Assembly (NCBI GenBank): GCA_029259545.1
Contig: JAPHEE010000005.1
Location: forward strand, 1,143 to 65,142
Length of the DNA: 64,000 nt
Origin: Candidatus Alkanophaga volatiphilum
GTDB lineage: Archaea > Halobacteriota > Syntropharchaeia > Alkanophagales > B39-G2
Direction: 5' to 3'
The position numbers and the translations under genes were made by a program. The notes under the pieces were generated by a model. That model made no database searches and had not been told where the DNA came from. It saw only the letters and a list, made by a program, of their open reading frames with translations. Below are positions 6,778-52,609 of the stretch, piece after piece (the first letter of the stretch is position 1; each line of letters opens with the position of its first letter).

Positions 6778-7887
6778 ATGCACTCCGGACTAGTTTTTTT
6801 CGGCGTGGAGGAGGTTGTCAGGGTCGCTGTGAGCGGGAGGCTGGGACCCCGCCGGAGGGTCAAGCTCCGCAGACTTTCTTCCGTCACAGACCTCGCCATA
6901 GTCAAGAAAAGGGGCAGGTACTGGCTGAGGGCTGGCGGGCGGCTTATCAGGGTCTTTTTCGACGATGTGGAGACGGTTGACGAGGCTCTGAGGGGCTTGT
7001 GGGAGGTTGAGGGGGCGGAGGTCGTAAGGAGGGGTAGAAGCAGGGTACTAATCAGGGTGCACTTCTGGAGGCGGGTCGAGGCTGCGGGGGTCGGAGGCGC
7101 CGGGGGCGGAAGCAAGCCCGAGCTCAAGCCCGAGCTCAAGCAGTCCGAGCCCAAGCTAGAGCCCGGGGAACCAAAGACGGTCGTCAGGTTGGAGCTGAAC
7201 GGTGCGAAGAGGGTGGTGGCTGCGACCGTGCTGAGTGGCGGGCGGGTCGTTGCCGAGACCAGCTTCAAGCTCGGCAGGAGGGTCGCCGACAGGCTCGTGA
7301 GCTACGTGAAGAGTTTTGAGAAGCCGATAATCGTGTGCGGGGACGAAATTCCGGGGTTGAGGGCGAGGGCGCGCCGCGCCGGGATCGAGGTCGTCGAGCC
7401 TTTTGACGGCAGCAGGAGGGCGGGGGCGAGGATCAACGTGAAGCCGCTCCTGGTCGGGGTTCTCGTGCTGCTGGCGACGGCTGCCCTCGCCATGGTTTAT
7501 TACTCTGCGTTCGGCGTGGCGACAATAACGGTCGAGAAGAAGCTGGACGTGAGCGTTGACGTGAGGGACGTTGTGGTGTACGTTCCGGGGATGGGGACGA
7601 AGGACATAGGGAACGTCACGGTGACCGTTTACGGCGCCGACACCGACTATCGGGTGATATTGCAGCTCGCAAACCTCGAAAAGTCCTGCGGCATCAGGGT
7701 CATAGCAATTCAGGTCTACGACGGGGACACGGGCGAGCTCAGGGGGATTCTCACGCCGATCACGCCGTCGCTGATAATGGACGAGTACGACGAGGGGAGC
7801 AAGACGTACGAGCTCAAGCTGTTCTACGTCGCCATACTGCCCGGCAGGGTGGAGGTTGCGGTGCAGGCGTCCGCCGAGCTGATGTAG
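6778..7887 (+). CDS. hypothetical protein; C-terminal TM helix plus beta-rich domain paralogous to 9393-9932
   Basis: GC-rich ORF. The tail INVKPLLVGVLVLLATAALAMVYYSAFGVATITVEKK...VEVAVQASAELM aligns with the whole 179-aa product of 9393-9932. Contains a KPELKPELKQSEPKLEPGEPK linker. Start is uncertain (ATG 6778, GTG 6805). An internal GTG at 7438 could give a separate 150-aa product. Confidence 0.55.
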   Translation: MHSGLVFFGVEEVVRVAVSGRLGPRRRVKLRRLSSVTDLAIVKKRGRYWLRAGGRLIRVFFDDVETVDEALRGLWEVEGAEVVRRGRSRVLIRVHFWRRVEAAGVGGAGGGSKPELKPELKQSEPKLEPGEPKTVVRLELNGAKRVVAATVLSGGRVVAETSFKLGRRVADRLVSYVKSFEKPIIVCGDEIPGLRARARRAGIEVVEPFDGSRRAGARINVKPLLVGVLVLLATAALAMVYYSAFGVATITVEKKLDVSVDVRDVVVYVPGMGTKDIGNVTVTVYGADTDYRVILQLANLEKSCGIRVIAIQVYDGDTGELRGILTPITPSLIMDEYDEGSKTYELKLFYVAILPGRVEVAVQASAELM

Positions 7888-8022
7888 CGGGGCGGCGGCG
7901 GGGCGGCGTCGTGTGCGTGTGCGGCGTCGTGTGCGTGCGGGTTCGGGTTTTGGGCTGCGGTTCGGGGTCGGGGTCGGAGGGTCTAAGTCACGGTTATAAG
8001 GCTGCGGGGGCAATTTTTTCTG

Positions 8023-9249
8023 ATGAACCGGGAGAGCATCGTAACCGGGCTTTTGGGGCTCGGGCTCGGGCTTGCGTTGTGCAGCGTCGTGCTGGCGTTG
8101 ACGTTTTCGAGGGTGGCGGGGGGCGAGGAGCTGACGTGGACGTACGGCACGCGCCTGATAAGGATAAACTGGGTCTGGCTTTCGAACCTCTTCCTCACGT
8201 GCGGGCTGGGGATGTTCGTGGTCGCCGCCCTCATGCCGGTGCTCAGGCGGGTGAGCCTGAGGACGCTTGCGGCTTCGCTCCCGCTCTCGGCTCTCTACCT
8301 CCTCATATCCGCCCTCGACGTCGTCACGACCCGTGTGCTGATAGACAGCGGCATGGGCGACGAGGTCAACCCGTTCATGGCTGCCCTGATGAACGTGTTC
8401 GGGACGGGCTACGCGCTGTCGCTCAACTTTGCGGTCTCGCTGTTCATAATCATAGCCCTCCTGTACTTTGCGGAGCGGCTGCCCCTGTTCTCGGCGGTCG
8501 TGCTCCTGATATCCTTCGTCCGTGGGCTGGTGGTGCACAGCAACATGAACATCGTCGAGGGATACACGCTGAGCACGTGGCTCGCAGCGCTGGAAAGCTC
8601 CCTGATCGAAAGCGTCCCGACCGTCATACTCTTCGCCCTCTCCGTGGTTCTGGGCGTGACGACCGCATTCGCATTCCCCGAGGAGGAGGGGGAGCGCCCG
8701 CAGCCCGGAGAACGCCCGCAGCCCGGGGAGCACCCGCCGTTCGGGGAGCGCCCGTCGCCCGGGGAGCGCCCGCAGCCCCTTTCGACTCCGACTCCGGGCT
8801 CGACCCTGCTGAGGGCGTCGAGAGCCGGCGCCGGCAGCGGCGGCGGGGGCGACGAGGAAAAAGGCGAGCTGCGGCTGCCCCTGCGGTCGCCGCCGTCAAC
8901 GGCGCCGTCAGCGGCGTCGTCAGCGGCGTCGTCGGCGTCGTCAGCGGCGGCGTCGTCGGCGGGCGGCGGGCGTGCGGTGCGGGTCGCCGAGGGGGCTGCC
9001 GGAAGGGTTGCCGAGGGGGCTGCTGAGAGGGCTGCCGAGGAGGTTGCCGGAAGGGCTGCCGGGGGGGTGGCGGGCGATTTGGGGGTGGGCGCCGTCGAGC
9101 TTGCGTTTCTGCTGGAGAGGTTCAGGATGGAGCGGGAGGTTTTGGAGGCGTTGCTGGAGGTGAGCCGGGAGGTGAGCCGGCGTAAGGGCATCCCGGTGAG
9201 TAAAGTGACCCTGCAGGACGTGATAGAAGAGCTCAAGAGGCGGTATTAG
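8023..9249 (+). CDS. polytopic membrane protein (DUF5658-like D..TT...E.NP core) with low-complexity tail
   Basis: Several hydrophobic helices. The block LLISALDVVTTRVLIDSGMGDEVNPFMAAL resembles DUF5658. Followed by (GERPQP)-type repeats, Ser/Ala and AEGAAGRV repeats, and a helical C-terminus. Confidence 0.6.
   Translation: MNRESIVTGLLGLGLGLALCSVVLALTFSRVAGGEELTWTYGTRLIRINWVWLSNLFLTCGLGMFVVAALMPVLRRVSLRTLAASLPLSALYLLISALDVVTTRVLIDSGMGDEVNPFMAALMNVFGTGYALSLNFAVSLFIIIALLYFAERLPLFSAVVLLISFVRGLVVHSNMNIVEGYTLSTWLAALESSLIESVPTVILFALSVVLGVTTAFAFPEEEGERPQPGERPQPGEHPPFGERPSPGERPQPLSTPTPGSTLLRASRAGAGSGGGGDEEKGELRLPLRSPPSTAPSAASSAASSASSAAASSAGGGRAVRVAEGAAGRVAEGAAERAAEEVAGRAAGGVAGDLGVGAVELAFLLERFRMEREVLEALLEVSREVSRRKGIPVSKVTLQDVIEELKRRY
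8688..8777 (+). repeat. five tandem 18-nt coding repeats (GERPQP GERPQP GEHPPF GERPSP GERPQP)
   Basis: Read directly: GGGGAGCGCCCGCAGCCC and its variants, head to tail. Confidence 0.9.
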
Positions 9250-9392
9250 CGTCACGCCGTGGCAGCCGGCGTCCGGCAGCCGAGCGGCACGCCGACGGCG
9301 GCGACAACAAAGTGACCCTCACCCAGCATTGCGGCTTTGTCCGAAAAATCTGAAAAAAATAGAAAAAGACTACTGCTTGAGAGCTATGCTAA

Positions 9393-9932
9393 CTATGCGC
9401 TTACCAGCTCAACTGACGCCCTGACTCCTATGGTGATCGTCCCGTCTTTGTATGCGATGCCGTTAAGTTTGAGGAAGTACGTCTTGTTGCCAATACTTGT
9501 GGCGGTATCATTGATGACGAGCGTTGGCGTCCACGGCGTCAGGAAGCCTTTTAGCTCATCGCCGGAATCATACTGGTGATCACCGTCGTCCTTATAAACT
9601 GCTATCGCTATCGATCTGATGTCGCTCAGATCTCCAGTAGCTCCTTTTCCCAACGCTGGAGCGTCGATGATGAGCCTGTATGTTACCGACGATCCGGGGA
9701 TGCTTGATACAGTGACGTTTACCTTTCCAAAATCTTGATTCGTCCAGATTCCCGGTGCGTACAACGTCGTGCCGCTAGGTTCGGAATACACTTCGAGAAT
9801 TTGCGTTGCCGTCACCGTCGCCGTGCTGTATGCGGAGTAGTAGACCATAGCCATGGCTGCGAGGGCGATGACCGTCACCGCACCCACTGCGAGCGCCTTC
9901 TTGTTCACCCTTCCGCTCGTGCCTCCCTTCAT
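9393..9932 (-). CDS. small secreted or membrane-anchored beta-rich protein, paralogue of the C-terminus of 6778-7887 (TasA/DUF1102-like pilin candidate)
   Basis: MKGGTSGRVNKKALAVGAVTVIALAAMAMVYYSAYSTATVTATQ..., with an N-terminal basic stretch plus a hydrophobic helix. Alternating beta-like pattern; ends VRASVELVSA, compared with VQASAELM in the paralogue. AT-rich promoter-like tract upstream at about 9960-9990. Confidence 0.6.
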   Translation of the reverse strand: MKGGTSGRVNKKALAVGAVTVIALAAMAMVYYSAYSTATVTATQILEVYSEPSGTTLYAPGIWTNQDFGKVNVTVSSIPGSSVTYRLIIDAPALGKGATGDLSDIRSIAIAVYKDDGDHQYDSGDELKGFLTPWTPTLVINDTATSIGNKTYFLKLNGIAYKDGTITIGVRASVELVSA

Positions 9933-10245
9933 TCACACCCCCGGTGGGAGGTGGATGAAAGCCGTATTTAAAACTTTCGACACTTTTATATCGGTTGGGT
10001 CGGCGGGCGTGGTCTTGCGGCGTCGTGGCGGCGTGCCCGCCCGGCGGCGGCGTCAGCGGCGGCGTCGTCGGCGGGCGGCGGGCGTGCGGGCGTGCGGTCG
10101 TGCGTCGTGCGGTGCGGCGGCGTCGTCGTGGCGGGGGTGGGTGGGGTGGAGGGGAGGGGGTGCGGCGTTGCCGAAAGTCGTTGCTTGCTTTCAAGCGGGG
10201 GGCGGGTGGTTAAGTTTAAACCTAAATCTCTAGGGGGGGATCTGG

Positions 10246-11352
10246 GTGCGGTGTTTGATAGTTCACCACTGGGACGCCGACGGCGTGAGTTCTGCGGCGC
10301 TCCTCCGCATTCTGCTCGGGCGTGGCGTTTTCGGCGAGCCGCCCGTGGAGGTGACGAACGTGACGCCGGAGATCGGCGTCTACTCGCTCGAGGGCTTGCG
10401 TCGCCGCATACGTGGGGGTTACGATCTGGTGATCCTTGCGGACATTTGTTTTTCGAGGGGGGAGGTTTTGCGTCTGAAGGAGCTTGCGGGCGCCGAGAGG
10501 CTGTGGATCTTCGACCATCACCACCAAGAGGAGGTTCGGGGGGCGGGCGTGGTGCACGTGAACCCGGTGATCGGCGGGGGCTGGTGCCCGTCGGCGTCGT
10601 GGCTGCTGGCGGAGCGCTTCCGCACGCCCTCGCCGCGGTGCGAGTTCCTGAAGGTCCTCGGGGCGGTCGGCGACCTCGAGGGCAGGATAAGGGAGACGGA
10701 AGCCTACCGGGACGTCGAAAGGTTTTTGGGCGGCGTGGGCATGAGCTTCGAGGAGCTTCTGCACGCTGCGGAGCTCGTCGATTCCAACTACCGGGTGGGC
10801 TGCGTCGAGTGCGTGGAGGAAGCCGTCCTGAAGCTCTTGGAAGTTGAGAAGCCGCAGGACGTGCTGGAGGTGGCGGAGTGGCGGGGGAGAGCCGAGAGGG
10901 TGAGGGCGGAGATAGAAAAGTGGGTTTCGGGGTGCGGGCGGCGGAGCCGTGAGCTCACGACGGCGGGCGGACGCAGCGTCCTGATATGCGAGATGGACAC
11001 ACGCCTCCACATAATCTCGGCGGTGACGAGGCGGCTGGCGGCGGCAAACCCCAAAAAGATCGTCGTCGTCGTGAACAGGGGGTTCGAGCGGGGACGGGGG
11101 CGGCAGCCGGAGGCTGAGGCGGAACCGGAGCCGGAGGCTGAGGTGGAAGCTGAGCGGGAGCGGCGGGTGCGGGGCGGCTTCCTTCAGATATACGTGCGGA
11201 CGCACCTCGGCGTCGATCTGACGCCGCTCATCCCGTATATGAGGGGGAGGGGCTGCTCCGCCGGCGGGAAGCGGGAGGTCGTCGGGGTCGTCGCACCGCC
11301 GGGCGCCGCCGCCCTCGAAGGTCTGGAGGCGTTTCTGGCTCGCAACTTCTGA
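10246..11352 (+). CDS. DHH-family phosphoesterase (RecJ-like fold)
   Basis: LIVHHWDADGVSSAALL (DHH motifs I/II) and WIFDHHHQ (motif III). Carries an acidic repeat insert, GRQPEAEAEPEPEAEVEAERER. Confidence 0.7.
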   Translation: MRCLIVHHWDADGVSSAALLRILLGRGVFGEPPVEVTNVTPEIGVYSLEGLRRRIRGGYDLVILADICFSRGEVLRLKELAGAERLWIFDHHHQEEVRGAGVVHVNPVIGGGWCPSASWLLAERFRTPSPRCEFLKVLGAVGDLEGRIRETEAYRDVERFLGGVGMSFEELLHAAELVDSNYRVGCVECVEEAVLKLLEVEKPQDVLEVAEWRGRAERVRAEIEKWVSGCGRRSRELTTAGGRSVLICEMDTRLHIISAVTRRLAAANPKKIVVVVNRGFERGRGRQPEAEAEPEPEAEVEAERERRVRGGFLQIYVRTHLGVDLTPLIPYMRGRGCSAGGKREVVGVVAPPGAAALEGLEAFLARNF

Positions 11353-11783
11353 GGCACGGGCGGTCGTGGGAGTGAGGCGGAGGTGACCGACCGTTCCGGT
11401 TACGGAGACCGTTCTGGTTCTCCGCTACTTTCATAACTTTTGATGCGTGTGTAGCGGAGAGCCTTCCGCGGAGAGCCTTCCCTCCTCCCATCCTCATCGG
11501 AGGGCTTTGGGGGGACGAAACTCCCCACATCTATCTTCCGTAACTCCGCCCTTCGGGCTTACCTCCCTTCCCGCATTCCGGCGGAGCTCCTACAAAAACC
11601 GTTAAAGGTTTCGAAGTTGCAAAAGTTACCGTACACGTTCCGCCCGCACCGCCGAGCCGGCTTCACGCGCCCCCCGCCGCAGGCGGCGTCGCCCCGTGCG
11701 GCGTCGCCGCTCCGTGCGCCGTCGCCGTGAAAGCCGGCTCCTGCCGTGCGGGCGGTCGTGGAAGTGGGTGGGGGGCGGAGCGG

Positions 11784-12209
11784 ATGCGTCCGGACTTGAG
11801 TCCGGATTCGGAGCTTGTGAGGAGGGCGGTGGAGTTCCACGGGCACTTGGGACCGTTCCTCGTTTTGGGTCTGAGGGCAGGGCTTCTCGCATTGGAAAGA
11901 CTCGGGGCTGCGAAGCACGAGCTGAGCGTCGTCGTGGAGACGGAAGACAAGCCGCCGGCGTCGTGCATCATCGACGGGATACAGGTTTCAACAGGCTGCA
12001 CTCTGGGAAGGGCGAACCTGCAGGTGAAATGGCATGAGGGAACGCCTAAGATCACCTTCAAGAAGGATTCTAGGCTCTTGGTGCTGAAGGTAAGAGATGC
12101 GGCTCTGAAAGAGATCGTAACTAAGATAGAAGAGGGGGGCAGTGAGGCTGCCGCTAAGGATGTCCTGTATAAGGATGAAAAGCAGTTATTTGACCTCAGC
12201 GCCCCTTAA
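11784..12209 (+). CDS. FmdE/FwdE-domain protein
   Basis: VEFHGHLGPFLVLGLRAGLLALERLG and IIDGIQVSTGCTLGRANL are typical of the FmdE family. ATG at 11784 preferred over the upstream GC-rich extension. Confidence 0.75.
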   Translation: MRPDLSPDSELVRRAVEFHGHLGPFLVLGLRAGLLALERLGAAKHELSVVVETEDKPPASCIIDGIQVSTGCTLGRANLQVKWHEGTPKITFKKDSRLLVLKVRDAALKEIVTKIEEGGSEAAAKDVLYKDEKQLFDLSAP

Positions 12210-15979: not shown

Positions 15980-16363
15980 ATGCAGATGAGTCAGAGCATA
16001 AGGAGTGAAGTTTATGAGATATCTGAGGAGATTTTAGCCAAGGTAAGAGAGTTGATGAGCGCGGATTTCTCTGAAGTGCTATCAATTTTAAAAGCGGTTT
16101 CCGACCCTACACGGTTGCGTATACTTAAATCTTTGCTCCTAGAGGAGCTATGCGTCTGCGTGTTCGTGGAGACCACAAAATGCAAGTATCCTGCCCTCTC
16201 TTACCACTTAAAGACGCTGAAGGACGCCGGATTGGTAACCTCGGAACGAAGGGGCAGCTTTTTGATATACAAGCTAACTACCCTAGGAAAATATGTTTTA
16301 AAGCTCATATCCATGCTGGAGGAATATATACGATCTGGGCTCAAGTCCGATGATACGGATTAA
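15980..16363 (+). CDS. ArsR/SmtB-family transcriptional regulator
   Basis: LKAVSDPTRLRILKSLLLEELCVCVFVE...LSYHLKTLKDAGLVTSERRG. Confidence 0.9.
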   Translation: MQMSQSIRSEVYEISEEILAKVRELMSADFSEVLSILKAVSDPTRLRILKSLLLEELCVCVFVETTKCKYPALSYHLKTLKDAGLVTSERRGSFLIYKLTTLGKYVLKLISMLEEYIRSGLKSDDTD

Positions 16364-25800: not shown

Positions 25801-26098
25801 ACTACCCTACCTTACTCTCCTCTTAGGGATGCAAGAAAGAGAAAAGGAGAAAAATTCCCCTTTCCTCCCTCGCATCTACCAGCAGCTGCTCACGCCGCAC
25901 GCCTCAGCGTGGGACTCACGTGGGCGAGCCTTGTGTGAACCTCAATCGAAGGTACATAAATAACTTTCCCCTCGTTGGCATAAATGTCTTGGGGTATGGG
26001 GAGTTGCGCCCGGGCGTCAGTGCCGGGGTGAGCAAAAGCGAGCGGAATTCGGCTCGGCGGCGTCAATAATATATCTCCTTTTAAATGTGCGGCTGCAT

Positions 26099-27070
26099 TT
26101 ATACCACCTCCCAAATGCCAAAATTCCCTATTGAAAGTGCTTTATCACAAACAAACTGCGAACCCGGGGTAATACAAATTTTAGCAACTTGGCTTATTTT
26201 TTGTCCTGAACCTCTCTCATTCCATTCTCTTCCAACAAGTGGTTCGATATCCCCCCTAATTAACTTGGCGCCCAGATTCTCGACGTTAACGTGGGAAAGA
26301 GCAATCATATACTCGCTCCTACTGCTTATCGTTAATCGCTTCTTTGCAGTATCAACTAGCATTCCAGAGCCAAATAAATCAACTTCCTCGTTAGAGGATT
26401 TTTCTAAAAGTATTTTTACTTTTCCAAACCCATAATTTCTTTCTCCTCCAACCCATATTTCATTTAATTTGACCTCATTAACTTCGATGGAATCCGTAAA
26501 TGATATTGTAAATGATATTCCTAAATCATGCATTTCTACTTCAATTTTTTGGGAAGTGTCTTTTACAAAGAAGTATCCCATAAAAATAGTAGGTTTAACC
26601 GTTTCACATTTTATTTTATCCCTAATAAACTCAATCTCGTGAAGTGATCCCTCTTCTGCGGACTTCGAGGTCTTATCTATAGCTGTTGAAACAAAGGAAG
26701 AGATAAAAATTCGTTCAAATTCTTCCAAAGAAATCGCTTTTTTATACTTGCATACACCAAATTTTAGACCATCCTTCTTATACCACGGAGCAAAAACTTG
26801 CTGAATGTGTATTTTTCCGTTTGCTCTCTTGTATTCCACTGGATAAAAGTAGGAAAACTTAATGTTTTCATTAAGACGTTTACCGATTATTCGATATGCC
26901 TCGGGGCTATAATTCTCCATAATACTCTTAGCTATCAAACTCGTTAATGCCCCCCAGACGTTCTTAGCTGGGATGTAATATCTAGTTCTGTCAACTACAC
27001 CTAACTTTGCACCATAACCGATATGTATCGGTGCTTTTGCCTCCAGATAAACTCTGTAGCACGCCCACAT
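26099..27070 (-). CDS. cmr3: type III RAMP protein, Cmr3/Cas5-like (last gene of the operon)
   Basis: N-terminal APIHIGYGAKLGVVDRTRYYIPAKNVWGALTSL. C-terminal glycine loop VGGERNYGFGKV. Position matches cmr3 in III-C loci. Confidence 0.6.
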   Translation of the reverse strand: MWACYRVYLEAKAPIHIGYGAKLGVVDRTRYYIPAKNVWGALTSLIAKSIMENYSPEAYRIIGKRLNENIKFSYFYPVEYKRANGKIHIQQVFAPWYKKDGLKFGVCKYKKAISLEEFERIFISSFVSTAIDKTSKSAEEGSLHEIEFIRDKIKCETVKPTIFMGYFFVKDTSQKIEVEMHDLGISFTISFTDSIEVNEVKLNEIWVGGERNYGFGKVKILLEKSSNEEVDLFGSGMLVDTAKKRLTISSRSEYMIALSHVNVENLGAKLIRGDIEPLVGREWNERGSGQKISQVAKICITPGSQFVCDKALSIGNFGIWEVV

Positions 27071-27074
27071 GAGA

Positions 27075-27605
27075 TCACCTTAAAGATCGGGCTCTGTAGA
27101 GGGCGTAGGTTAACATTTGCTCTAAGATCCGTTTGACGAAGAACATTTGAGGTATACTTTCTAAGATACTTCCATCCTTAGTTAATTCGTTTCTAAAAGT
27201 TGTTTTTAATTCAGCCCAAATGGGATCTGGATCGTTTCTATCATTTTTCCCTTTGAGTAATAATTTCAATTTCTCATCCTTAGATGCGAAGAAGTCATTT
27301 GGGAAATGTAATTTATCGAGTTTATTGAGAAGTTTTGCAGAGTAAAACATTATTAATCGATGTATCTTTTCATCATCCCCTATACTTTTTTGTGAGTTCT
27401 TTCTTTCATCCCACGTAATATTCTTACCTTCGGACTCTAAATAGATCAAATAAGCAAAAATCCCTTCTTGTGAAAGGACGGCTAGCGCTTTTCTGATGGC
27501 ATTTTCCTGTTTTGAGGGATCAAGTTGTTTTGTTGGATCACTTGGATCCTTATCCTTGGGTATTGAAAATCCAATTTCAGCGCAAAGCCTGTCAATGTTA
27601 GTCAT
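27075..27605 (-). CDS. cmr5: small helical subunit, Cmr5/Cas11-like (by position, size and composition)
   Basis: 176 aa, predicted all-helical by composition, lying between cmr4 and cmr3. I recognise no strong motif. Confidence 0.5.
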   Translation of the reverse strand: MTNIDRLCAEIGFSIPKDKDPSDPTKQLDPSKQENAIRKALAVLSQEGIFAYLIYLESEGKNITWDERKNSQKSIGDDEKIHRLIMFYSAKLLNKLDKLHFPNDFFASKDEKLKLLLKGKNDRNDPDPIWAELKTTFRNELTKDGSILESIPQMFFVKRILEQMLTYALYRARSLR

Positions 27606-28842
27606 CCCCCTGCACCTCCCTGCAGACTTTTTCCCAGTTGGCAGCTATTTTTTGCATCTCTTCTGTCGTTTGCCTAATTTTCTCTTGCAGCTCCTTTATC
27701 CTCACATTTATTATATTTCTTTCTTCATCTGCTTTTATTTCCTTTAACTCCTCTTTTAATTTTCTTATCTCGCCTACGAGGTTATTAGCTTGTATTTCGC
27801 TTAATTTTACTTTGTCATACTTTTCATCTAAACCGAACACCTTAAACTTACCAAATCCTCTTGTGCCCATTCCTCCAACGCCCAAGAACTCAAATAACTT
27901 GAATCCGGTTTCTACTGTACTGACGATATCGTTTAATCCCAGATTCAGTCCGAAGTGTTCGGGTTTTTGATACACGACATCGAAGTAGAATATCGTAGTT
28001 CTCGGTATTGCTTCGTAAGTGAATAATGCACCTTCCTCAGCAGCTCCAGTGGTTGGATTTATTGAAACCGACGTTCTCACTTCTAAGTTTGAGTCTACTA
28101 TCTGAGAAAAGACAGAATTGCTAACGATGACCAGTCTGTTGAGGATTTCCTCTAAAATTTCAACTTCTTTGTCATTGAGCAATCTATCCCTAAATTTTAA
28201 TCCATCAGCGCCAAAAAGTGTATCAACACAGATGTTATGGGTTGTAGTTTCGCCGTTCTCTTTTTTCTTTAATTGAAGCAATAACCAGCCAAAGTTTAGA
28301 AATCCAGTGTCTTCTAATTTTGATTTCAAGTAATTAGATACTACGCAGAACCTACTTTCGTCGAAATCCTGCCATGCGCCTTGGTCAACATTCAGTTCCT
28401 TAAGTCTACTTGGGCAAGTAACCCAAATCGGACCTATAAGAGATGCTACTGGGAAGAATAGTATTTTTGCATCTGAGAACAGAGCCATTCCTTGGAGGCT
28501 TTCTGGCTTATTATCCTCTTTTGCACCTTCACTGTTTGTATATCCAAATGTTACACAAATTTTACATTTATAGTTTTTATATTTGCAACCTCCATCTTGC
28601 GGTTTTTTGTTGTGTTTTTCCTTATCTGCGCATTGAGGTTGCTTAAAATAAAGTGCAGCGTAAGTTCTTGTTGTACCTTCTATACTCGTTCCCGGGATCT
28701 TTGGTATTCCATCAAAGTCTCTGAGTGTTGGGTTGTCCACTCTTCCGAGCGTGTAACCACCGGTACCAACATGTATTGGATCTATCGCCATTCCAAAATA
28801 GATTTTTCTTTCATAGGGCTTATCCATATTGTTCACCTCCAA
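27598..28842 (-). CDS. cmr4: Cmr4 (Cas7 backbone subunit) with a C-terminal coiled-coil-like tail of about 70 aa
   Basis: AIDPIHVGTGGYTLGRVDNPTLRDFDGIPKIPGTSIEGTTR and GMALFSDAKILFFPVASLIGPIWVTCPSRL. Glycine loop GVGGMGTRGFGKF. Tail LSEIQANNLVGEIRKLKEELKEIKADEERNIINVRIKELQEKIRQTTEEMQKIAANWEK. Confidence 0.85.
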   Translation of the reverse strand: MEVNNMDKPYERKIYFGMAIDPIHVGTGGYTLGRVDNPTLRDFDGIPKIPGTSIEGTTRTYAALYFKQPQCADKEKHNKKPQDGGCKYKNYKCKICVTFGYTNSEGAKEDNKPESLQGMALFSDAKILFFPVASLIGPIWVTCPSRLKELNVDQGAWQDFDESRFCVVSNYLKSKLEDTGFLNFGWLLLQLKKKENGETTTHNICVDTLFGADGLKFRDRLLNDKEVEILEEILNRLVIVSNSVFSQIVDSNLEVRTSVSINPTTGAAEEGALFTYEAIPRTTIFYFDVVYQKPEHFGLNLGLNDIVSTVETGFKLFEFLGVGGMGTRGFGKFKVFGLDEKYDKVKLSEIQANNLVGEIRKLKEELKEIKADEERNIINVRIKELQEKIRQTTEEMQKIAANWEKVCREVQGDD

Positions 28843-31800
28843 TTTTAGATTCTAAGGTCATAAACAGCTCAATTACATCGAAGAACATACCGGATAGGAT
28901 TGACGAGGTTATAATCTTTTTATCTCCTTCGCTTAATCTTCCACAAATGTTCTCAACAGAAGAAATAACAAACTCTTTAAATTCAGAATCCTCTGCGAGG
29001 TTTTTACCTTTTAATTCCCATTCTTTAATTTTATTTGCACAGACATATTCAAGTTTTTTAATCTGTGTCCTTGTAAGTCTTTCATTGAGGATGCTCCAAA
29101 GTTCGATTATTTTTTCGACATCCTCCAAAAGATACGGTCTTGGACTAAACTCTCCAAACAATTCATGTTTCCTTGGTAAAGCCAGATCAAACCTCCTCGT
29201 TGTTGAATCAAAGAACTGAAAATCGAATAGATTTGGTACGATCTCCATTATTTTCCCATCCAAATCTTTCACATTAACAATTGCAACGTCTTTTTCTTTC
29301 AAGGTAATTTCAAAATAAGTCTCCTCATCTCCAGAGGCATTTGTTACAATAAAGTTTGGATGATATAAATCCTTGTCATCTCCTAACTTTCGGTAAACGT
29401 TCCACTTATAAACATTTATCCATGAGCCGAATTCCTTTGAAACTTTTTCCTTCACATCATTGCCGAGTTCTACAACTTTTATTTCTGAGTCGTCCACACT
29501 TGTAATCTTGAATCTTCTCCACCCATCTTCTCTGTTTAGTTCTGATGAAAGCGATTCTATAGATCTCTCAACACCATCCATGACTGCAAAAAGCGGGAAT
29601 TTTCTTTTGAAAAATGCAATTCCAAGATTAAAGGATAATCTTCCACGAACTTTACTAAATTTATCGTTATATTTGTTCAAAAATCCATGTATAATTTTCA
29701 ACGCTAAATTTGCTGGAACAAGAATCTTAAGTCGGTTTGGGGAAATCATAATTTTCCTGAAAGGCAAGTATTCCTCAAAATCTACGTTTCTTATTTTAAT
29801 TTCGATTATTTTATCTTTCCCACTATCTTTTATTTTTATTTTTAATATAGAATTTATTAGTTTTTTAGATGCCGCTCTGATTTTTTCCTGTTTTTCTTTT
29901 AAAATTTGCTGTAAACCCTCCGCTTGATGGGCTGTTACATAGTTTTCAATTCTGAGTGTCGTATTAAAGTACTCGCCATCCCAATATAAGTCCATTTTTG
30001 GAAGAGGTATATCAAAATCTAGTTCAACGAGTTCGTACGGTTGATATTTGTTCCTTTTATCTTCAAAGAAGTTTCTTGTTTCGTCATCCATAAACTCTGG
30101 TTCTATTTTCATTCGCAGACAGTATCCACCAGTAAACTCTTTTACCACATTCCGAGCTTCGTTAACCAATTTATTAACAAAATCTAAAGTTTCTCTCCAG
30201 ATTCTACTTAGACGAGAGGGGGAGGGAGGTTTTGTAAATAAACCTGTTGCCCAATCTTTTGGTTTGTCAGTTCCAATTCTTGATCTTAGAGAGAGGTATA
30301 TGTCTTCAATCATAGGTCTAATCTCCAAGCGTAATTCATCTGCTAAGAAAGGTCTAAGGAGTTCTTGTTTTGCTTTTTCATAACCTTCTTTATTGATTTG
30401 ATAAAGAAACTCACTTAACATTTCTTTGATCTTAGGGAATCCTCCCTTTTTTATATCCTCTCTGATTGATATGTATTCTGGTCTTTCCCAAATCTTAACT
30501 TTGTTTTTACCAACTTCTCTATTTAGATCGATGATATCACTTACAGACTTTATTAATAATGTTTTCAATAAAGTTCCATCTAACCACCTTTCAAGAGGGA
30601 TGAATCCATAGATTAGAGCAACATTTCCATTTTCATCTGCGATTTCATCGATCCATACAGTTTCTTCAAAAACCCCATTTTGTTTTTTAGAACTTGTTTT
30701 AGCCCCCTCAATTCTCAGCCTCTGACACCATTCACAAATATCTCTTCCCTCCATCCTCGGTCTCTTACCACACTCCACGCAAATCTCCCTATTCTTAACG
30801 TTTCTCCACTCTTTAACCCAACTTATTTTATCTAAAGAACCTTCTAATAATAATGGAGTTTTAATTTTAGCTCGCAACTTATTTAGGGTCTGAACAATTA
30901 TTTTACTGGGATATGGATTTGGATCACTTAATTCGATACACGGAATAATGCTTCCGTTACTTAGCTCTATCACTTCGGATATTAGCATCTTTCTAATTTC
31001 TTCAAAAATCAAGTCCAAATTCTCCGGAACAAGGAAGCAAACGAAGTTGTGATCCTCATAAATCGCATTACCAACCGGAATTTCAAATTCAAGCAAAGTC
31101 TTAACCCTTTTTCTTATTGCTTCTATAAGTAAATTCCTTCCTGCTACTCCTGATAGAGTTTGAGCTTCTTTGTATATCTTAAATGAGTCCCAAGATACAC
31201 CGAGAACTCGCAACTTTTTAGTCCAATGTCTTGATGCATTAGAAGGTAAAGACGTTGAAAAGTTGTTTAGTATATCTTCAATCATTAACGCTTTTGCAAT
31301 CGACGCAGTTGCGTAACTGTGATCCCAAAGCGTAACATCGTTTGCAGCCCTCCTAGTCTCGGCAGGAGTGCTATCGGATGTATACTCCCACTCTATTAAG
31401 ATGCTATCCCTGAATGAAAAGAGAGATGTATTAGAACTTAACTTGGTGCCAACGTGCCTCCACACACCAGCTAACTTAAAATAAAAGTTATTTCTTAATT
31501 TTTCGAGTTCATCTTCATTCACATCAATTTCTATACCAAAAGTAGAGGCAAGACAAGTTTTTCCCTTTTGTTGAGCAAGAGGCATTAGCCTATCATCGGC
31601 AGAGTCTTTTCTATCTGCGAGTTTAACAAATCCTAATAGCTCTTCATTCGTCTTGATTTTTCCATCACCGTGTTTCTCTATTATATCTTTTAGGGTTACT
31701 GAATCGAGATTCCAAGCTTTTAGAATTTGATCAGTAACTGGTATAAATGGTGCTACAAGGTTGCTCAGAGGCGTGGTAAAGAGCTCTAAGAGTCCTAAAT

Positions 31801-32002
31801 TGCTTAATGAGCCTTTATCATAATCTATAATTTTTTCATGTTTATAGTCTTTATCTTCTTTTAAGTCTTTGCGATGCTTTCTTAAAAATCTTCCATCCAA
31901 CTTCCCCAAATCATGAAGCAATGCACCGATTTCACCAAGTATTATTATCGCCCTATACTTTTTGAGAGTGTCAATCTTGTTGATGGCCATTTTAATCACC
32001 AA
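28820..32002 (-). CDS. cas10: Cas10 (Cmr2-like large subunit): HD domain present, cyclase Palm motif degenerate
   Basis: 1060 aa. HD dyad in GALLHDLGKL (aa 30-31). Cas10-typical DVTLWDHSYATASIAKAL. Zinc finger C408/C411/C423/C426 (CVECG...CEWC). The Palm-2 block reads IMISPNR-LKILVPANLALKII...LSFNLGIAFFKRKFPL, so SPNR sits where GGDD is expected. Confidence 0.9.
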   Translation of the reverse strand: MVIKMAINKIDTLKKYRAIIILGEIGALLHDLGKLDGRFLRKHRKDLKEDKDYKHEKIIDYDKGSLSNLGLLELFTTPLSNLVAPFIPVTDQILKAWNLDSVTLKDIIEKHGDGKIKTNEELLGFVKLADRKDSADDRLMPLAQQKGKTCLASTFGIEIDVNEDELEKLRNNFYFKLAGVWRHVGTKLSSNTSLFSFRDSILIEWEYTSDSTPAETRRAANDVTLWDHSYATASIAKALMIEDILNNFSTSLPSNASRHWTKKLRVLGVSWDSFKIYKEAQTLSGVAGRNLLIEAIRKRVKTLLEFEIPVGNAIYEDHNFVCFLVPENLDLIFEEIRKMLISEVIELSNGSIIPCIELSDPNPYPSKIIVQTLNKLRAKIKTPLLLEGSLDKISWVKEWRNVKNREICVECGKRPRMEGRDICEWCQRLRIEGAKTSSKKQNGVFEETVWIDEIADENGNVALIYGFIPLERWLDGTLLKTLLIKSVSDIIDLNREVGKNKVKIWERPEYISIREDIKKGGFPKIKEMLSEFLYQINKEGYEKAKQELLRPFLADELRLEIRPMIEDIYLSLRSRIGTDKPKDWATGLFTKPPSPSRLSRIWRETLDFVNKLVNEARNVVKEFTGGYCLRMKIEPEFMDDETRNFFEDKRNKYQPYELVELDFDIPLPKMDLYWDGEYFNTTLRIENYVTAHQAEGLQQILKEKQEKIRAASKKLINSILKIKIKDSGKDKIIEIKIRNVDFEEYLPFRKIMISPNRLKILVPANLALKIIHGFLNKYNDKFSKVRGRLSFNLGIAFFKRKFPLFAVMDGVERSIESLSSELNREDGWRRFKITSVDDSEIKVVELGNDVKEKVSKEFGSWINVYKWNVYRKLGDDKDLYHPNFIVTNASGDEETYFEITLKEKDVAIVNVKDLDGKIMEIVPNLFDFQFFDSTTRRFDLALPRKHELFGEFSPRPYLLEDVEKIIELWSILNERLTRTQIKKLEYVCANKIKEWELKGKNLAEDSEFKEFVISSVENICGRLSEGDKKIITSSILSGMFFDVIELFMTLESKIGGEQYG

Positions 32003-33035
32003 TTTTATTTATTAACTCGTTCATTTTTTCCTTAAACTCCTTAAACGTGCCTTTGTAGTGGTTATCATTTATCCAAAATTCTATTTCATCCTCAACAACT
32101 CCGTATCCACTTGTTTTCTTAGCAGAAAATCCATATTCAAGCAGCATTTTTGGAATGGTTTCTTTTAAAAGTTCTAGATCTTTTGGAACTTCCTCTTCAA
32201 GTCTTTCCTTACTATGGAGTATATCGAACGGTATGTAAAGCAAGATAAACGTACCCTTGGATGCCGGGATAACTGGAACTACCTCAAACATAATTGGCAC
32301 TTTGACAGTCTTTGTCTTCCTTTTATGTGGAGCTATTATATCTAATCCAATTCCACTGAAAAATGTTGAATAAAAAATCAAACGACCTCTTCCATTTCCA
32401 CCTTTATTTACATATTTTTTATTAAGAATATATTCAAAAAATTCCTGAGAGACTGTTTTCCTTGGGTTATCTGATGAGTATTTTTCATTAAAGATATCAT
32501 CTAGGAATTGTTCAATCTTATCTTTTTCATTCCCAAAAAGTCTAATCAACTTCGCTCTTTCTCCAAAAGCCATATATTTATCTGACGGTAATTTACTTAG
32601 AAGCGTATTTAGTGCAACCCATCTTAAAGCACCCTTCCAGGAACTTGATCGTATAATTGGGATTTTGAAAAATTTATCTTTACAAATTGGATTTTCTGTA
32701 ATATAGAATTCTTCATCATCTTTACTAATATACGGTTTTCGTAATCGGAATTTAATTTTTATTAGAACTGAATAGGGCAAATTTGGAGGGTTTTGAGGGT
32801 CATTTATACCCAATTCCTTAATTAATGCCACTCTCGATTTGATTAATCCAAGATATTCAGTTCTGACCCAGTATTTATATTTATTCTCTCTAGCCCACTT
32901 TTTACCACTCTCTGTTATCATGCTTAATGAAGCTAATTTTATTTTATGATACGCATCATCGATTTTGTCAACTCTATCAAAATTTGCTCCTTTTTTGTGT
33001 TCATCCCAAAATTCAGCGTAAAAGTCGTGGATCAT
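31992..33035 (-). CDS. cmr6: Cmr6-like RAMP (Cas7 family)
   Basis: IPIIRSSSWKGALRW, LIRLFGNE and GRLIFYSTFF. C-terminal glycine loop GFSAKKTSGYGVV. N-terminal helical extension of about 110 aa. Confidence 0.75.
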   Translation of the reverse strand: MIHDFYAEFWDEHKKGANFDRVDKIDDAYHKIKLASLSMITESGKKWARENKYKYWVRTEYLGLIKSRVALIKELGINDPQNPPNLPYSVLIKIKFRLRKPYISKDDEEFYITENPICKDKFFKIPIIRSSSWKGALRWVALNTLLSKLPSDKYMAFGERAKLIRLFGNEKDKIEQFLDDIFNEKYSSDNPRKTVSQEFFEYILNKKYVNKGGNGRGRLIFYSTFFSGIGLDIIAPHKRKTKTVKVPIMFEVVPVIPASKGTFILLYIPFDILHSKERLEEEVPKDLELLKETIPKMLLEYGFSAKKTSGYGVVEDEIEFWINDNHYKGTFKEFKEKMNELINKIGD

Positions 33036-34333
33036 CCCAACACCTCCTTAAGTAATTGATCTTTAAATTTTACAGTTCCAAATTCCAAAGTGTTAAACCC
33101 AAAGCAACTCTCAAGAATTTTTATAATTTGCCCGATGACTTTCTTTTTATCGAATTTTACAGTTATATTTCGATCATAGCTTAGTACTGGTGGGATTTCA
33201 CCCCAAATCCTAAAATGAAGGTCAGAACCTATACTGTAGGCATGGCTTACGTTTATTCTACTAGCCCACTTCTCTTCCAAATCTGAACCAAATAAGTACC
33301 GTGCAACAACTTTACTAGGTTTGTACTTTCTTTTTAACAATTCGTATTCTTTTCTATTCTCCTGAAGCCTCTTTTTCTTCTCTTCTAACTTTTTCCTTTT
33401 TTTATTATCGGTTTCTTCTTTTATTATCTGATTGAGCTTGTTTATCTTATTATCTAACTCTTTTATTATTCCATCTAATTTCCTAACTACCTCATTACAT
33501 GCATTTTTGATTTCTATAAAATTTGTTACAGGCAAGTTTTTAAGGTTTTTAAACTCGGCTCTCAGTAGAAACTTTATTGCAAATCCTGAAAGTATGTAAT
33601 TGGAAGTTTTTCCAGCATCATTCAGTAATTTCTCTCTAAAAGTGTCGACCTCATCTACCTTAACATCAATCTTGAAGAAATTGTTGAAGTTAGGTAATTC
33701 CTGCTGAAAACCTGACTTAGAGAGTGAACGTTGAAAGAGTTCATACCCTTGCCTAATCTGTTCTTTTTTGAGGTTCTTAACAGTGAATATACCAAATCCA
33801 TTCTGAGTCTTTGCCCCCAAGCCTCCAGTTAATGAGATTGTTTTTAGAAGGAATGCTATAATATCCTCAATTTCCTTATTATAAGGAGATACTACCTTTA
33901 ATTTAGTTTCTCCGTAAAATCCTACTGGATTTTTTCCTAAGGTTTTATTAATCCACCACCTTAAATCGGTCTTAAAAGATGGATGATCGATTTTCGTAAC
34001 AAATTTAAGATTTACTAAGGGAAGGTCTTCCATTTCAACCCTAAATCTCCTACTCCAGCCCGTACACCCAAATAACTGGCAGGCTGGGCAAATTTGCTCA
34101 TCTAAAGCTTCCTGAATTGATTTTCCTTCTCTGATCGCATTCTGGAGTCTTCTTTGGTCTAATTCACATCTTCTTTCAGAGGTAGGATCACAAGCATATC
34201 CACCAAATCCCCTAACCAAAGCTTCGTACCACCATCTAAGAGAGCCAATTATCCCAGTTTCTCTGATTTTACTACATTTCCTATCAACATCTCCTGTCCA
34301 AATTGGCGTTAGGGTTTTAATCTTAACCTCCAT
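33032..34333 (-). CDS. cmr1: Cmr1-like RAMP (Cas7 family) with Cys4 insertion and an internal Lys/Glu-rich coiled-coil-like insert
   Basis: TLTPIWTGD, ETGIIGSLRWWYEALVRG, C48/C56/C82/C85 with CPACQLFGCTGW, glycine loop GGLGAKTQNGFGIF, and ARYLFGS. Insert at aa 280-338: IIKELDNKINKLNQIIKEETDNKKRKKLEEKKKRLQENRKEYELLKRK. Confidence 0.75.
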   Translation of the reverse strand: MEVKIKTLTPIWTGDVDRKCSKIRETGIIGSLRWWYEALVRGFGGYACDPTSERRCELDQRRLQNAIREGKSIQEALDEQICPACQLFGCTGWSRRFRVEMEDLPLVNLKFVTKIDHPSFKTDLRWWINKTLGKNPVGFYGETKLKVVSPYNKEIEDIIAFLLKTISLTGGLGAKTQNGFGIFTVKNLKKEQIRQGYELFQRSLSKSGFQQELPNFNNFFKIDVKVDEVDTFREKLLNDAGKTSNYILSGFAIKFLLRAEFKNLKNLPVTNFIEIKNACNEVVRKLDGIIKELDNKINKLNQIIKEETDNKKRKKLEEKKKRLQENRKEYELLKRKYKPSKVVARYLFGSDLEEKWASRINVSHAYSIGSDLHFRIWGEIPPVLSYDRNITVKFDKKKVIGQIIKILESCFGFNTLEFGTVKFKDQLLKEVLG

Positions 34334-34616
34334 CCCTTATGACCTCTCCTAAGTAGTGGGCATCCAGTGAGGCTCGCATTTACCCCGGGCAGCCTACCAC
34401 TGTACACAATGGGGAAGCATCATATAAGAACCTTTCTCAGCCTCTGCTGTATTACTCCTTAAAAGCCTCACCCTAAGCAGCGTGTTCTTCGTACAACCCC
34501 GCTTAAGGTAAGCATCCAGCAGATCCGTGGAGAGCTGAGAATCAAGGTGTTCTCACCAAATTTACATATCCACACGTACTTGTCTTTTACGACCCACATG
34601 GCAACTTTGGAGGAGT

Positions 34617-35860
34617 TTAACAGCAACTCGCCACCGATACTTGCATCTTGTTGTAGGCTGTGAAAAATTCGTCTCTATCAGCGATAGAATCCCACGAGAT
34701 GTTCAACACAAATAAATACGAAGAAGCGTTTGTGTAGAAGTCAAAAGAATCGCCACCCCAACCTGCTGCCGCCTGCCTTGCCGTGTCTTCATCTATATGC
34801 AACTCAAGCATCGTCCTTATGAAAAACTCGCCAAGAACGTCAGAGCTTAGCGTCCAGCCTTCACCGAGCGGTAGTTCTGCATTTGTCACGTTCTTGCGGG
34901 GTTCTCGGCTGAAATATTTGTTGGGATGAATTATTTGTTCCGTTGTCGTGGGAGGGTCTAAGAAGGCAGCGTTCACAGCGTCCTAGCTTCCTTCTTCGTA
35001 TAAACGAGAGACGAAAATCTTGCCCTCGACGTAAGGAAATTCCATGAACGCGTCTAGGGTCCTTTCGAGGAGGCTTTCTGAAGACGAGCTCCCAAAAGCG
35101 GCAGCTTCGACGCTCGGCTCTCTCCCCTCATAAAGATCAGTAGTTATGCAGGCGTCGCCCTCGATGAGCGCCCGCGCTGCCATCAGTTCATCGAAAGTGC
35201 GTCTTGAGAGCAACCTCGTGAGATCAAAATGCTGGTCTTGGAGCACGTGCACGTATTCATGCGGCAGGATTTTCCGCAGCAAAGATGCCCTTTTTTCGGA
35301 AATAACGAAGACTTTGTTCCAGGGATCATAGTACGCCACTACATGTTCCGCTTTATGCTCGACGCTCACCTCCTTAATACTTTCATTCTCATCTGCCATG
35401 AACAATGCCTTTAACATCAGTTCACTTCTGTTATCGAGGTTGCTCGTCTGTTTGCCAATTTCCTCGGGACTCATGAACTCGTACGGAACTTCATGTGACC
35501 TCCTCGCTCAGCAAGGGGCTTCCACCGGAAGCCTTGGGAGGTTGGGGAGTGTGCCATAAGGCGCTCCCCTCCGGGCCGGGTCACGGCGGCCCCTGACCGC
35601 AGGTTGTACCCACGGCCTCGTTGCAAACCTATATTGTCTTCGGAGTATAAAAATTCTACTCCTGCCAGCCCCCCGCCCCAATTCATTCCGCCCTCAGGAC
35701 GAGCCTTCTTAGCGACTGATGGTAAAAGCTCTAAGCCTCTTATTTCCTCCACTTTGTGTATTATTTCAGCTTCATCCAATCTGATACACTGGTGATATGC
35801 CGTTACCAAGAGAGTAAGTACGAAAGCGGAAACGAGCGCAACCACTACAAGACGCTTCAT
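34617..35860 (-). pseudogene. secreted HExxH zinc-metalloprotease-like gene, split by a MITE and a further stop or frameshift
   Basis: Signal-like MKRLVVVALVSAFVLTLLV. HEYVHVLQDQH in the middle piece. AAGWGGDSF in the last piece. Removing 35495-35721 joins gag ctt tta cat gaa gtt ccg = ELLHEVPYEFMSPEE in frame. A second break lies at about 34977-34983. Confidence 0.7.
35495..35721 (-). mobile_element. MITE family A, copy 3, inside the protease gene
   Basis: In element orientation: GCTTTTAC|CATCAGTCGCTAAGAAGG...GTAGAATTTTTATACTCC...CCTCCCAAGGCTTCCGGTGGAAGCC...GCGAGGAGGTCAC|ATGAAG. TATA at 35645-35654. Confidence 0.8.
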
Positions 35861-52515: not shown

Positions 52516-52609
52516 TCGGTGTTGCCATATGGGCATTGCGCCGTCGGGCTTGCACTCCCGCAAAATTAATTAAGTGTATCGCTTATTTAAGGTCAGGCGG
52601 GGCGGTAGG

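Follow-up and report, generated by a model that had tools for sequence, protein, structure and literature searches.

We analyzed a 64-kb stretch of archaeal DNA (the window) that carries, on its minus strand, an AT-rich island of six cas genes. The island is almost certainly a complete and intact effector module of subtype III-C of the CRISPR systems, and we are hardly less confident that it was recently acquired by horizontal transfer. The window comes from Candidatus Alkanophaga volatiphilum, six flanking proteins matching exactly the NCBI entries under that name; this is an alkane-oxidizing archaeon (70 °C) enriched from Guaymas Basin sediment (PMC10322722). Taken as a whole, the island is probably best explained as a III-C module, horizontally acquired, that uses CRISPR RNAs (crRNAs) made elsewhere in the host genome.

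Six genes encode a subtype III-C effector complex

A preliminary description of this DNA had reported six packed minus-strand open reading frames (ORFs) with Cmr- and Cas10-like motifs and had assigned them to subtype III-C. The six ORFs are indeed there; counted from the longest starts, neighboring ORFs overlap by 4, 11, 23, and 8 nt, with a single 4-nt gap. We typed them with NCBIfam, Pfam, and PADLOC profiles (the PADLOC models being labeled CAS-III-B or CAS-III-C). All six matched Cas models, and the motifs read by eye turned out to be genuine family matches. The cas10 product scored 348.9 bits against the Csx11 equivalog model TIGR02682 (cut-off 248.95; residues 10–1047) and matched the PADLOC Cas10c model (CAS-III-C) at 1.1e-129. 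PADLOC also matched a Cmr-type subunit set (Cmr1, Cmr6, Cmr4, Cmr5, and Cmr3), with E values from 1e-21 to 1e-75. The gene order cmr1-cmr6-cas10-cmr4-cmr5-cmr3 recurs in loci of Methanothermobacter sp. THM-2, Methanoperedens, Dictyoglomaceae, Brocadia, and Bathyarchaeota. With Csx11 above its cut-off, Cas10c and the Cmr set matched, and the order equal to that of the Methanothermobacter locus, the III-C typing stands.

Subtype III-C is defined by an inactivated Cas10 cyclase (PMC12669027, PMC11229360, PMC6013697). None of the strings GGDD, GGDE, SGDD, and GGED occurs in the island Cas10 or in 33 of its 36 aligned homologues, and the alignment of 36 Csx11 proteins contains no conserved acidic hairpin motif. 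The cyclase/polymerase palm of the island Cas10 is predicted to be inactivated, as III-C requires. Protein family, lack of GGDD, subunit set, and gene order all agree, and the island thus shows every testable feature that defines III-C.

The residues expected of a working complex are in place. Besides the HD dyad and the Cys4 zinc finger (Table 1), seven residues within the N-terminal 230 of Cas10 are invariant in the 36 Csx11 proteins: H107, D126, D129, D133, N217, D218, and H224. This N-terminus gave weak profile matches to Cas3 HD domains. Because its HD metal-binding residues are conserved, Cas10 is a predicted HD nuclease. An AlphaFold2 model of Cas10 (mean predicted local distance difference test score 88, predicted template modeling score 0.90) is confident enough for guiding construct design; its top Foldseek matches in the PDB were all Cas10, Csm1, or Cmr2 chains of Csm and Cmr complexes (probability 1.0, 10–12% identity). 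In Cmr4, phmmer aligned GRVDNP with GVVDQP of the Pyrococcus furiosus protein and placed D31 on chain residue 26. We take this Asp26 of P. furiosus Cmr4 to be the residue that cleaves target RNA.

Two subunits carry additional segments. Residues ~264–347 of Cmr1 form a lysine-rich helical stretch with weak, sub-threshold Pfam matches of coiled-coil type, and Cmr4 bears a Cys-rich insert and a C-terminal extension of ~75 aa (weak coiled-coil-type Pfam matches only). Among close relatives, the 3′ half of cmr1 and the 5′ half of cmr6 are hypervariable (Cmr1, 332–433 aa; Cmr6, 347–417 aa), and two related loci have one or two additional small genes between cmr1 and cmr6 (L018, 4050–4617; L052, 923–1480).

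The island is a strain-variable insertion

The AT-rich core of the island (26086–34337) has a GC content of 35.6%, against 54.6% in the remaining window (z = −7.5 versus 79 segments of equal length elsewhere in the 64 kb). In 1-kb steps, all values outside the island are at least 49% and all values inside at most 38%, so that a sliding-window plot shows the sharp step at the operon ends that had been predicted from three hand-counted 60-nt lines; these counts (28.3%, 33.3%, and 48.3%) were exact. GC at third codon positions is 0.26–0.37 in the six island genes and ~0.5–0.84 in the ORFs called outside. Composition and codon usage thus mark the island as foreign.

Look-up of two flanking host proteins retrieved contigs with the island and contigs with an empty site. 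Over 10 kb of flank on each side, the empty-site contigs are 97.7–99.2% identical to the window, so that contigs with and without the island fall within one species. Since same-species contigs carry the empty site, the island is a strain-variable insertion. Its junctions lie at 34479/34478 and 25973/25972: host homology ends after ...GAACACGC (34479) and restarts at AGGGGAAAG (25972). The empty allele has an intact 415-aa DUF8575 gene followed, 101 nt on, by a TRAM gene (L009, L010, L011, L012, and L015), and L016 shows the same empty junction. The insertion lies ~80 nt ahead of the DUF8575 stop codon, at the 3′ end of the gene, with ~6 nt of the target lost. The inserted DNA consists of the six cas genes and 254 nt of non-coding ends and has no other coding content.

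The preliminary description had drawn the limits of the AT-rich tract close to the ORFs. The tract does end 4 nt from the first ATG and 13 nt from the last stop, but the inserted DNA is larger (34478..25973). The proposal in that description that an effector-only module was recently transferred is borne out by the same-species contigs with an empty site and an intact target gene, and by the low GC of the contigs that carry the closest relatives (see below).

A very sharp GC step could also arise if a low-GC contig of another organism had been misjoined to Alkanophaga DNA during assembly or binning. A related low-GC cassette is present in the same culture project (L052, from a low-coverage organism). 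Moreover, in sample ERZ26872903 the island is a contig of its own (NODE_785) with a coverage of 171, lower than the 274 of the flanking contig. However, independent assemblies cross the left junction (L002 and L007) and the right junction (L003, L004, L005, and L014) with identical sequence, which rules out a chimera, and the separate island contig itself (L001) has host flank at its ends. We therefore consider an artifact extremely improbable. The ends of NODE_785 overlap the flanking contigs by ~55 nt (coordinate arithmetic), and the point at which filled and empty alleles converge is precisely where two further contigs (L013 and L017) begin. A separate island contig together with such starts is what a bubble in the assembly graph looks like, and the two alleles thus probably occur side by side in the cultures; taken by itself, the coverage ratio might also reflect GC bias. 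A Joint Genome Institute sediment metagenome (L014) has the same island end, with one single-nucleotide difference in the 100 nt of trailer compared, next to a flank that is only 97.8% identical.

Between the two insert ends we found no direct or inverted repeat of at least 9 nt, and their best local alignment scored below the shuffle mean; target duplications and att sites are therefore absent. A likeness of the left end of the insert to the target, seen in a MAFFT alignment, did not exceed shuffled sequences and was discarded. With no integrase or recombinase gene, att repeats, target duplication, or tRNA target, the island does not qualify as an integrative mobile element.

In the window, the interrupted DUF8575 gene is a pseudogene (Table 1). 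Compared with the intact allele it has a 227-nt insertion and three 4-nt deletions, and these deletions cluster within 180 nt left of the island. On the other side, the displaced 3′ remnant is ~25–30% diverged from the empty allele, and the next 100 nt beyond it are identical to that allele. The remnant does not match the allele of Ca. A. liquidiphilum, and an origin in that species was rejected. We hold with moderate confidence that a different Alkanophaga lineage was the first to receive the island and that homologous recombination then carried it into the present background with short diverged flanks. The 227-nt insertion (35497–35723, minus strand) is itself highly structured (minimum free energy −99 kcal/mol), and a diverged copy lies 33 kb away at ~2049–2249 (plus strand; 86% identity over 84 nt and 75% over 53 nt). 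It has no Rfam match and looks like a small non-autonomous repeat resembling a miniature inverted-repeat transposable element.

The non-coding ends of the insert may serve expression of the operon. The leader contains a TATA-like TTATATGA at 34420–34427 and GGAGAGGT 8 nt upstream of the ATG, and probably carries the promoter and ribosome site that these motifs predict. The trailer (57% GC over the 100 nt measured) contains a terminator-like hairpin and T-run at 26039–26056, found by a terminator scan. Both the leader and the trailer (blastn of 25986–26085) matched only other copies of the island, with no match in the rest of the window or in the other fetched loci. An unseen intermediate context is thus likely.

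The starts of cas10 and cmr4 given in Table 1 are those chosen by gene callers on other assemblies; the longest-start ORFs span 28820–32002 and 27598–28842.

Table 1. Coordinates of the island, its genes and residues, its target gene, and related composite loci. Positions refer to the window unless a locus is named.
Feature	Position	Strand	Details
Whole inserted segment	25973..34478	-	8,506 nt; both junctions aligned to empty-site contigs L009, L012, L015, and L016
Leader	34338..34478	-	141 nt, 50% GC; found neither in the empty allele nor in the fetched contigs of relatives
cmr1	33032..34333	-	433 aa; Cas7-group repeat-associated mysterious protein (RAMP); TIGR01894 7e-26, PADLOC Cmr1 2e-28
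cmr6	31992..33035	-	347 aa; Cas7-group RAMP; PADLOC Cmr6 1.4e-74
cas10 (Csx11/Cas10c family)	28820..31990	-	1056 aa from ATG 31990; alternative TTG 32002
Cas10 HD dyad H26-D27	31910..31915	-	N-terminal nuclease domain; invariant columns in the alignment of 36 Csx11 proteins
Cas10 Cys4 zinc finger	30725..30781	-	C404, C407, C419, C422; invariant in 36 homologues
cmr4	27598..28827	-	409 aa from ATG 28827; alternative TTG 28842; backbone Cas7 RNase; TIGR02580 115 bits (cut-off 87), PADLOC Cmr4 7e-46
Cmr4 Asp31	28735..28737	-	Counterpart of P. furiosus Cmr4 Asp26; phmmer to PDB 4wnz/4rdp
cmr5	27075..27605	-	176 aa; small subunit (Cas11); PADLOC Cmr5 3e-21, III-C-specific model 9.5e-21
cmr3	26099..27070	-	323 aa; Cas5-group subunit; PADLOC Cmr3 1.6e-75
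cmr3 stop to right junction	25973..26098	-	~13 nt cas5b-like, then 113-nt trailer (25973–26085)
DUF8575, 5′ part	34479..35860	-	Pseudogene split into ORFs of 129, 163, and 119 aa, versus the intact 415-aa allele
DUF8575, displaced 3′ remnant	25899..25972	-	74 nt
Composite I-B/III-C loci	L038 594-14796; L040 4-11066; L020 362-11284

The cassette has relatives inside type I-B operons

The nearest Cas10c proteins are all metagenomic and are 92, 78, 76, 72, and 71% identical to that of the island. Beyond these five, identity is at most 44% (metagenome-assembled genomes of Nitrososphaerota, Bathyarchaeota, and Methanosuratincola), and no Cas10c relatives were found on IMG/VR viral contigs. The contigs of the closest relatives have 32–36% GC throughout, non-cas genes included, and DNA similarity to them begins 4 nt before the cmr1 ATG and stops 11–13 nt past the cmr3 stop. 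In L038, L040, and L020 the cassette sits within a type I-B operon, between cas7b and cas5b-cas3b; the full order is cas4 or cas2, two unassigned genes in the cas8/cas11 positions, cas7b, the six III-C genes, cas5b, and cas3b. In the island, the first ~13 nt past the cmr3 stop resemble the start of cas5b of the relatives (alignment to L018, L038, and L020, where cas5b follows cmr3). This remnant is a suggestive rather than strong trace of the donor locus.

The six genes are not equally close to these relatives. Cas10c is 92% identical to its counterparts in L018 and L038, Cmr4 is 89% and Cmr3 81% identical to those of L038, and Cmr5 is 92% identical to that of L052; among the closest relatives Cmr3 identity reaches 81–85%. 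Cmr6 is only 47–55% and Cmr1 only 33–49% identical to any relative; for Cmr1 the nearest relatives give 40–49%. Synonymous divergence (dS) to the single relative L038 spans 0.18 to 1.2 across the genes. These comparisons show the cassette to be a mosaic, and the poor identity of Cmr1 and Cmr6 to the relatives means that its 5′ third is of different ancestry.

In a plausible course, excision from a composite I-B/III-C locus, carried by some low-GC inhabitant of the same hydrothermal setting, released the cassette, which was then integrated by illegitimate recombination. It would possibly have landed first in another Alkanophaga lineage and then have spread by homologous recombination.

Two further observations concern the I-B/III-C loci. 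In ANME-1 G60 (L027, 84–11183), a very different III-C cassette (Cas10 26% identical) precedes a segment whose DNA shares 81% identity with the cas5b-cas3b region of L038; cassettes thus appear to have been swapped in one conserved slot. The Cas3b proteins of such loci form a clade (P0156–P0200) whose members are 61–91% identical across entries labeled ANME-1, Candidatus Desulfofervidus auxilii, Asgardarchaeia, Thermodesulforhabdus, and Thermosphaera. The sharing of one clade by these taxa, several of them thermophiles, points to frequent exchange of I-B loci between archaea and bacteria.

One could go further and see in the six-gene III-C cassette a plug-in unit, complete in itself, that needs no recombinase of its own to move between I-B operon slots and ordinary chromosomal sites. 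We regard this generalization as doubtful. If it were true, the Alkanophaga island would be a cassette that has only just landed, at a site away from any CRISPR locus. Were the island also active, III-C effectors would be promiscuous users of any Cas6-processed host crRNAs, and such promiscuity would account for how often the subtype moves by itself.

The module may work with crRNAs supplied in trans

Earlier inspection had found no array, cas6, cas1/cas2/cas4, CARF protein, integrase, tRNA, or att-like repeat in the 64 kb, and our scans upheld this. Tandem Repeats Finder, a direct-repeat search, and a spaced k-mer scan detected no CRISPR-like spaced repeats in the window, nor did it contain a tRNA or any Rfam family, CRISPR-DR included. 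A search of the window for ATTGAAAG, which we take to be a common archaeal Cas6 tag, gave two chance matches, neither of which lies on the strand of the operon within the leader or trailer. Scans of the two island ends against Rfam at high sensitivity revealed no lone repeat or crRNA-like unit. Among the families that PADLOC matched to the 100 outside ORFs with lengths of 110 aa or more (best 25 of 28 families; the other 3 rank below E 2.6e-5), there was no Cas1, Cas2, Cas4, Cas6, or CARF domain. Two winged-helix proteins, encoded at 15980–16360 and 52574–53404 (both plus strand), matched Csa3/CARF-HTH models (7.9e-19 and 5.7e-7). Only the winged-helix half of these models aligned, so the two proteins have no CARF domain and were rejected as CARF proteins; automatic pipelines could mislabel them as CRISPR-associated.

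The lack of an array and of adaptation genes had been presented as an oddity. It stands as an observation and falls as an oddity, being the documented norm for III-C (PMC12669027, PMC11229360). Most III-B, III-C, III-E, and III-F loci have no CRISPR array, and most type III systems apparently use Cas6 from other loci in trans (Makarova et al. 2025, PMC12669027). According to Hoikkala et al. 2024 (PMC11229360), III-C has neither cyclase active sites nor ancillary effectors that are known, and an HD domain is present in half of its loci. Among 14 III-C loci that we sampled from GTDB genomes, three have an array within 10 kb (L022, L026, and L027), and the scanned contigs of relatives held no arrays. 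The Methanoperedens locus L024 is likewise a six-gene island, with 33% GC in a genome of 46% GC. For III-C, then, the lack of an array, adaptation genes, and partners is ordinary, and the borrowing of crRNAs in trans is the default expectation from the literature.

Host supply is conceivable on other grounds as well. CRISPR repeats were detected in genomes of the Alkanophagales (Laso-Perez et al. 2023, PMC9894754 with supplement); the supplements covered of the paper on the host have no CRISPR annotation (PMC10322722). The arrays beside two of the sampled III-C loci (L022 and L027) have repeats that end in ATTGAAAG, and such repeat ends, being the common Cas6 tag, make cross-use of arrays plausible. 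By analogy with other type III systems, we lean towards the island being a working III-C effector that uses host arrays and host Cas6. Host-array crRNAs, cut by host Cas6 so as to leave an 8-nt 5′ tag, would load the complex. Cmr3 and Cas10 would hold the tag, Cmr4 and Cmr5 would build the backbone along the guide, and Cmr1 and Cmr6 would cap the crRNA 3′ end. Binding of a complementary transcript would let Cmr4 cut the RNA in 6-nt steps and would activate the HD domain of Cas10 for the degradation of single-stranded DNA at the invader being transcribed. As no cyclic oligoadenylate would be made, no CARF/SAVED nuclease would be needed.

Several points weigh against an active, host-supplied module. 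This mechanism is extrapolated from III-A and III-B, because we found no biochemical study of a III-C complex in the literature and no solved Csx11 or III-C structure among the PDB sequence or profile matches or among the best 50 structure matches. Between the samples compared, the island does not differ in sequence, so its intactness may only reflect recent arrival. The cassette is under purifying selection (dN/dS 0.07–0.23 for cas10, cmr4, cmr5, and cmr3), a constraint which, being measured against relatives, is that of the donor pool and not one acting in this host. Neither an array nor cas6 nor any other cas locus of the host was seen within the window; among the matches listed for a Cas3b search with a query from the sister order ANME-1 (P0156–P0200), none is labeled Alkanophaga. 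Finally, the cassette may depend on the Cas6 and repeats of a partner I-B locus that was not transferred along with it.

These points invite the view that the island is an inert passenger: a cassette torn from an I-B/III-C locus, in a host without compatible crRNAs, an orphan bound to decay and still intact through recency. Nothing of the cas7b, cas5b, cas4, and cas2 surroundings of the closest relatives came along; the island is present in some strains only, sits in a gene that is already a pseudogene, has no array within 64 kb, and, given its identity across samples, has left selection no time to act. Against this, the six ORFs and the HD, Cys4, and Cmr4 Asp residues are all intact. Array-less, stand-alone six-gene III-C cassettes are common in unrelated genomes, which argues that they work without a linked array, and Alkanophagales possess CRISPR arrays (PMC9894754). 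The presence of the island in a strain with a 2% different flank (L014) further suggests spread or retention rather than loss. We judge an inert passenger, the chief competing reading, unlikely.

The preliminary description had also entertained an exapted complex, recruited for an array-independent role, for example in the regulation of host transcripts or as an RNA-independent nuclease. All that speaks for such a role is that the island has no linked array, no adaptation genes, and no cyclase signaling; however, the same absences define most III-C loci (PMC12669027, PMC11229360). Nor did the leader, trailer, or island contain an associated novel gene, a lone repeat, or a crRNA-like unit, and the residues for crRNA-guided interference show no unusual loss. 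Exaptation is thus very unlikely.

The island is not a new kind of system; its value is that of a clean natural example of the spread of a stand-alone III-C cassette. One species offers filled and empty sites and exact junctions, a low-GC gene pool can be identified within the same hydrothermal community, and metagenomes and metatranscriptomes of the enrichment cultures are published (PMC10322722). This combination is convenient for a study of how stand-alone type III effector modules spread and whether the crRNAs of a new host make them functional.

Other features of the window

Three other features of the window were noted. The stretch at ~7000–12000 has 64–68% GC (~54% elsewhere) and dense tandem repeats of 9–36 nt; long ORFs run across it on both strands, and their products are probably low-complexity proteins. 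Two ORFs of the window match the NCBIfam model 'Hvo_1808 family surface protein'. An RtcB RNA ligase gene (61094–62575, minus strand) contains an intein (NCBIfam 'intein-containing RtcB', 1.7e-210), and a PADLOC homing-endonuclease match (1e-123) is probably this same ORF.

Comparison with known systems

The genus of the III-C type example offers the first comparison. Methanothermobacter sp. THM-2 (L051) has the same six genes in the same order, with an HD domain in its Cas10c; both Cas10 proteins belong to the Csx11 family and have no GGDD. Like the island, L051 stands alone: within 10 kb there is neither an array nor cas6 nor any adaptation gene, and its neighbors are glycosyltransferase and transporter genes. 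However, its Cas10 is only 26–28% identical to that of the island, and all island subunits except Cas10 are larger (Cmr1, 433 versus 268 aa; Cmr4, 409 versus 258 aa; Cmr5, 176 versus 118 aa). The GC content of the L051 module is near that of its flanks, whereas the Alkanophaga island is strain-variable and far below host GC.

The closest sequence relatives are the composite I-B/III-C loci (L038, L040, L020, and L018), with Cas10 72–92% identical, the same cassette boundaries, and 32–36% GC. There the cassette lies amid I-B genes with cas4 and cas2 nearby, while in Alkanophaga it is alone in a housekeeping neighborhood.

Other III-C loci carry genes that might be partners. An AbiEi/AbiEii toxin-antitoxin pair lies between cmr6 and cas10 in two of them (L027, 1016–2550; L028, 2198–6606). 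In L028 the N-terminus of Cas10c carries the AbiEii nucleotidyltransferase as a fusion (1217 aa), and P0061 (1222 aa) has the same Pfam domain; in a subtype credited with 'no known effectors', the AbiE pair could be an ancillary module. Nucleotidyltransferase-HEPN gene pairs (MNT/HEPN type) directly follow cmr3 in Methanoperedens (L024, 15076–15809) and Methanosaeta (L030, 7727–8676), and the Alkanophaga island has no equivalent of this pair.

The III-B Cmr complex of Pyrococcus furiosus, Saccharolobus, and Archaeoglobus has the same subunit set as the island and presumably the same architecture, and III-B loci, too, are often without an array and Cas6 of their own. The gene order differs. III-B Cas10 has an active GGDD cyclase, whose cyclic oligoadenylates go to Csx1-type nucleases, whereas the island has neither the motif nor such an effector.

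Subtypes III-F, III-G, and III-H, HD-only type III systems whose cyclase motifs are missing or whose cyclase is inactivated, share with the island a predicted immunity by the HD nuclease without cyclic-oligoadenylate signaling, and III-G and III-H also have no adaptation module (PMC12669027, PMC11229360). They are built from other Cas10 families and subunit sets, and none of their profiles beat the III-C models on the island proteins. The catalytic Asp of Cas7 is not conserved in III-G and III-H, whereas the Cmr4 of the island keeps it.

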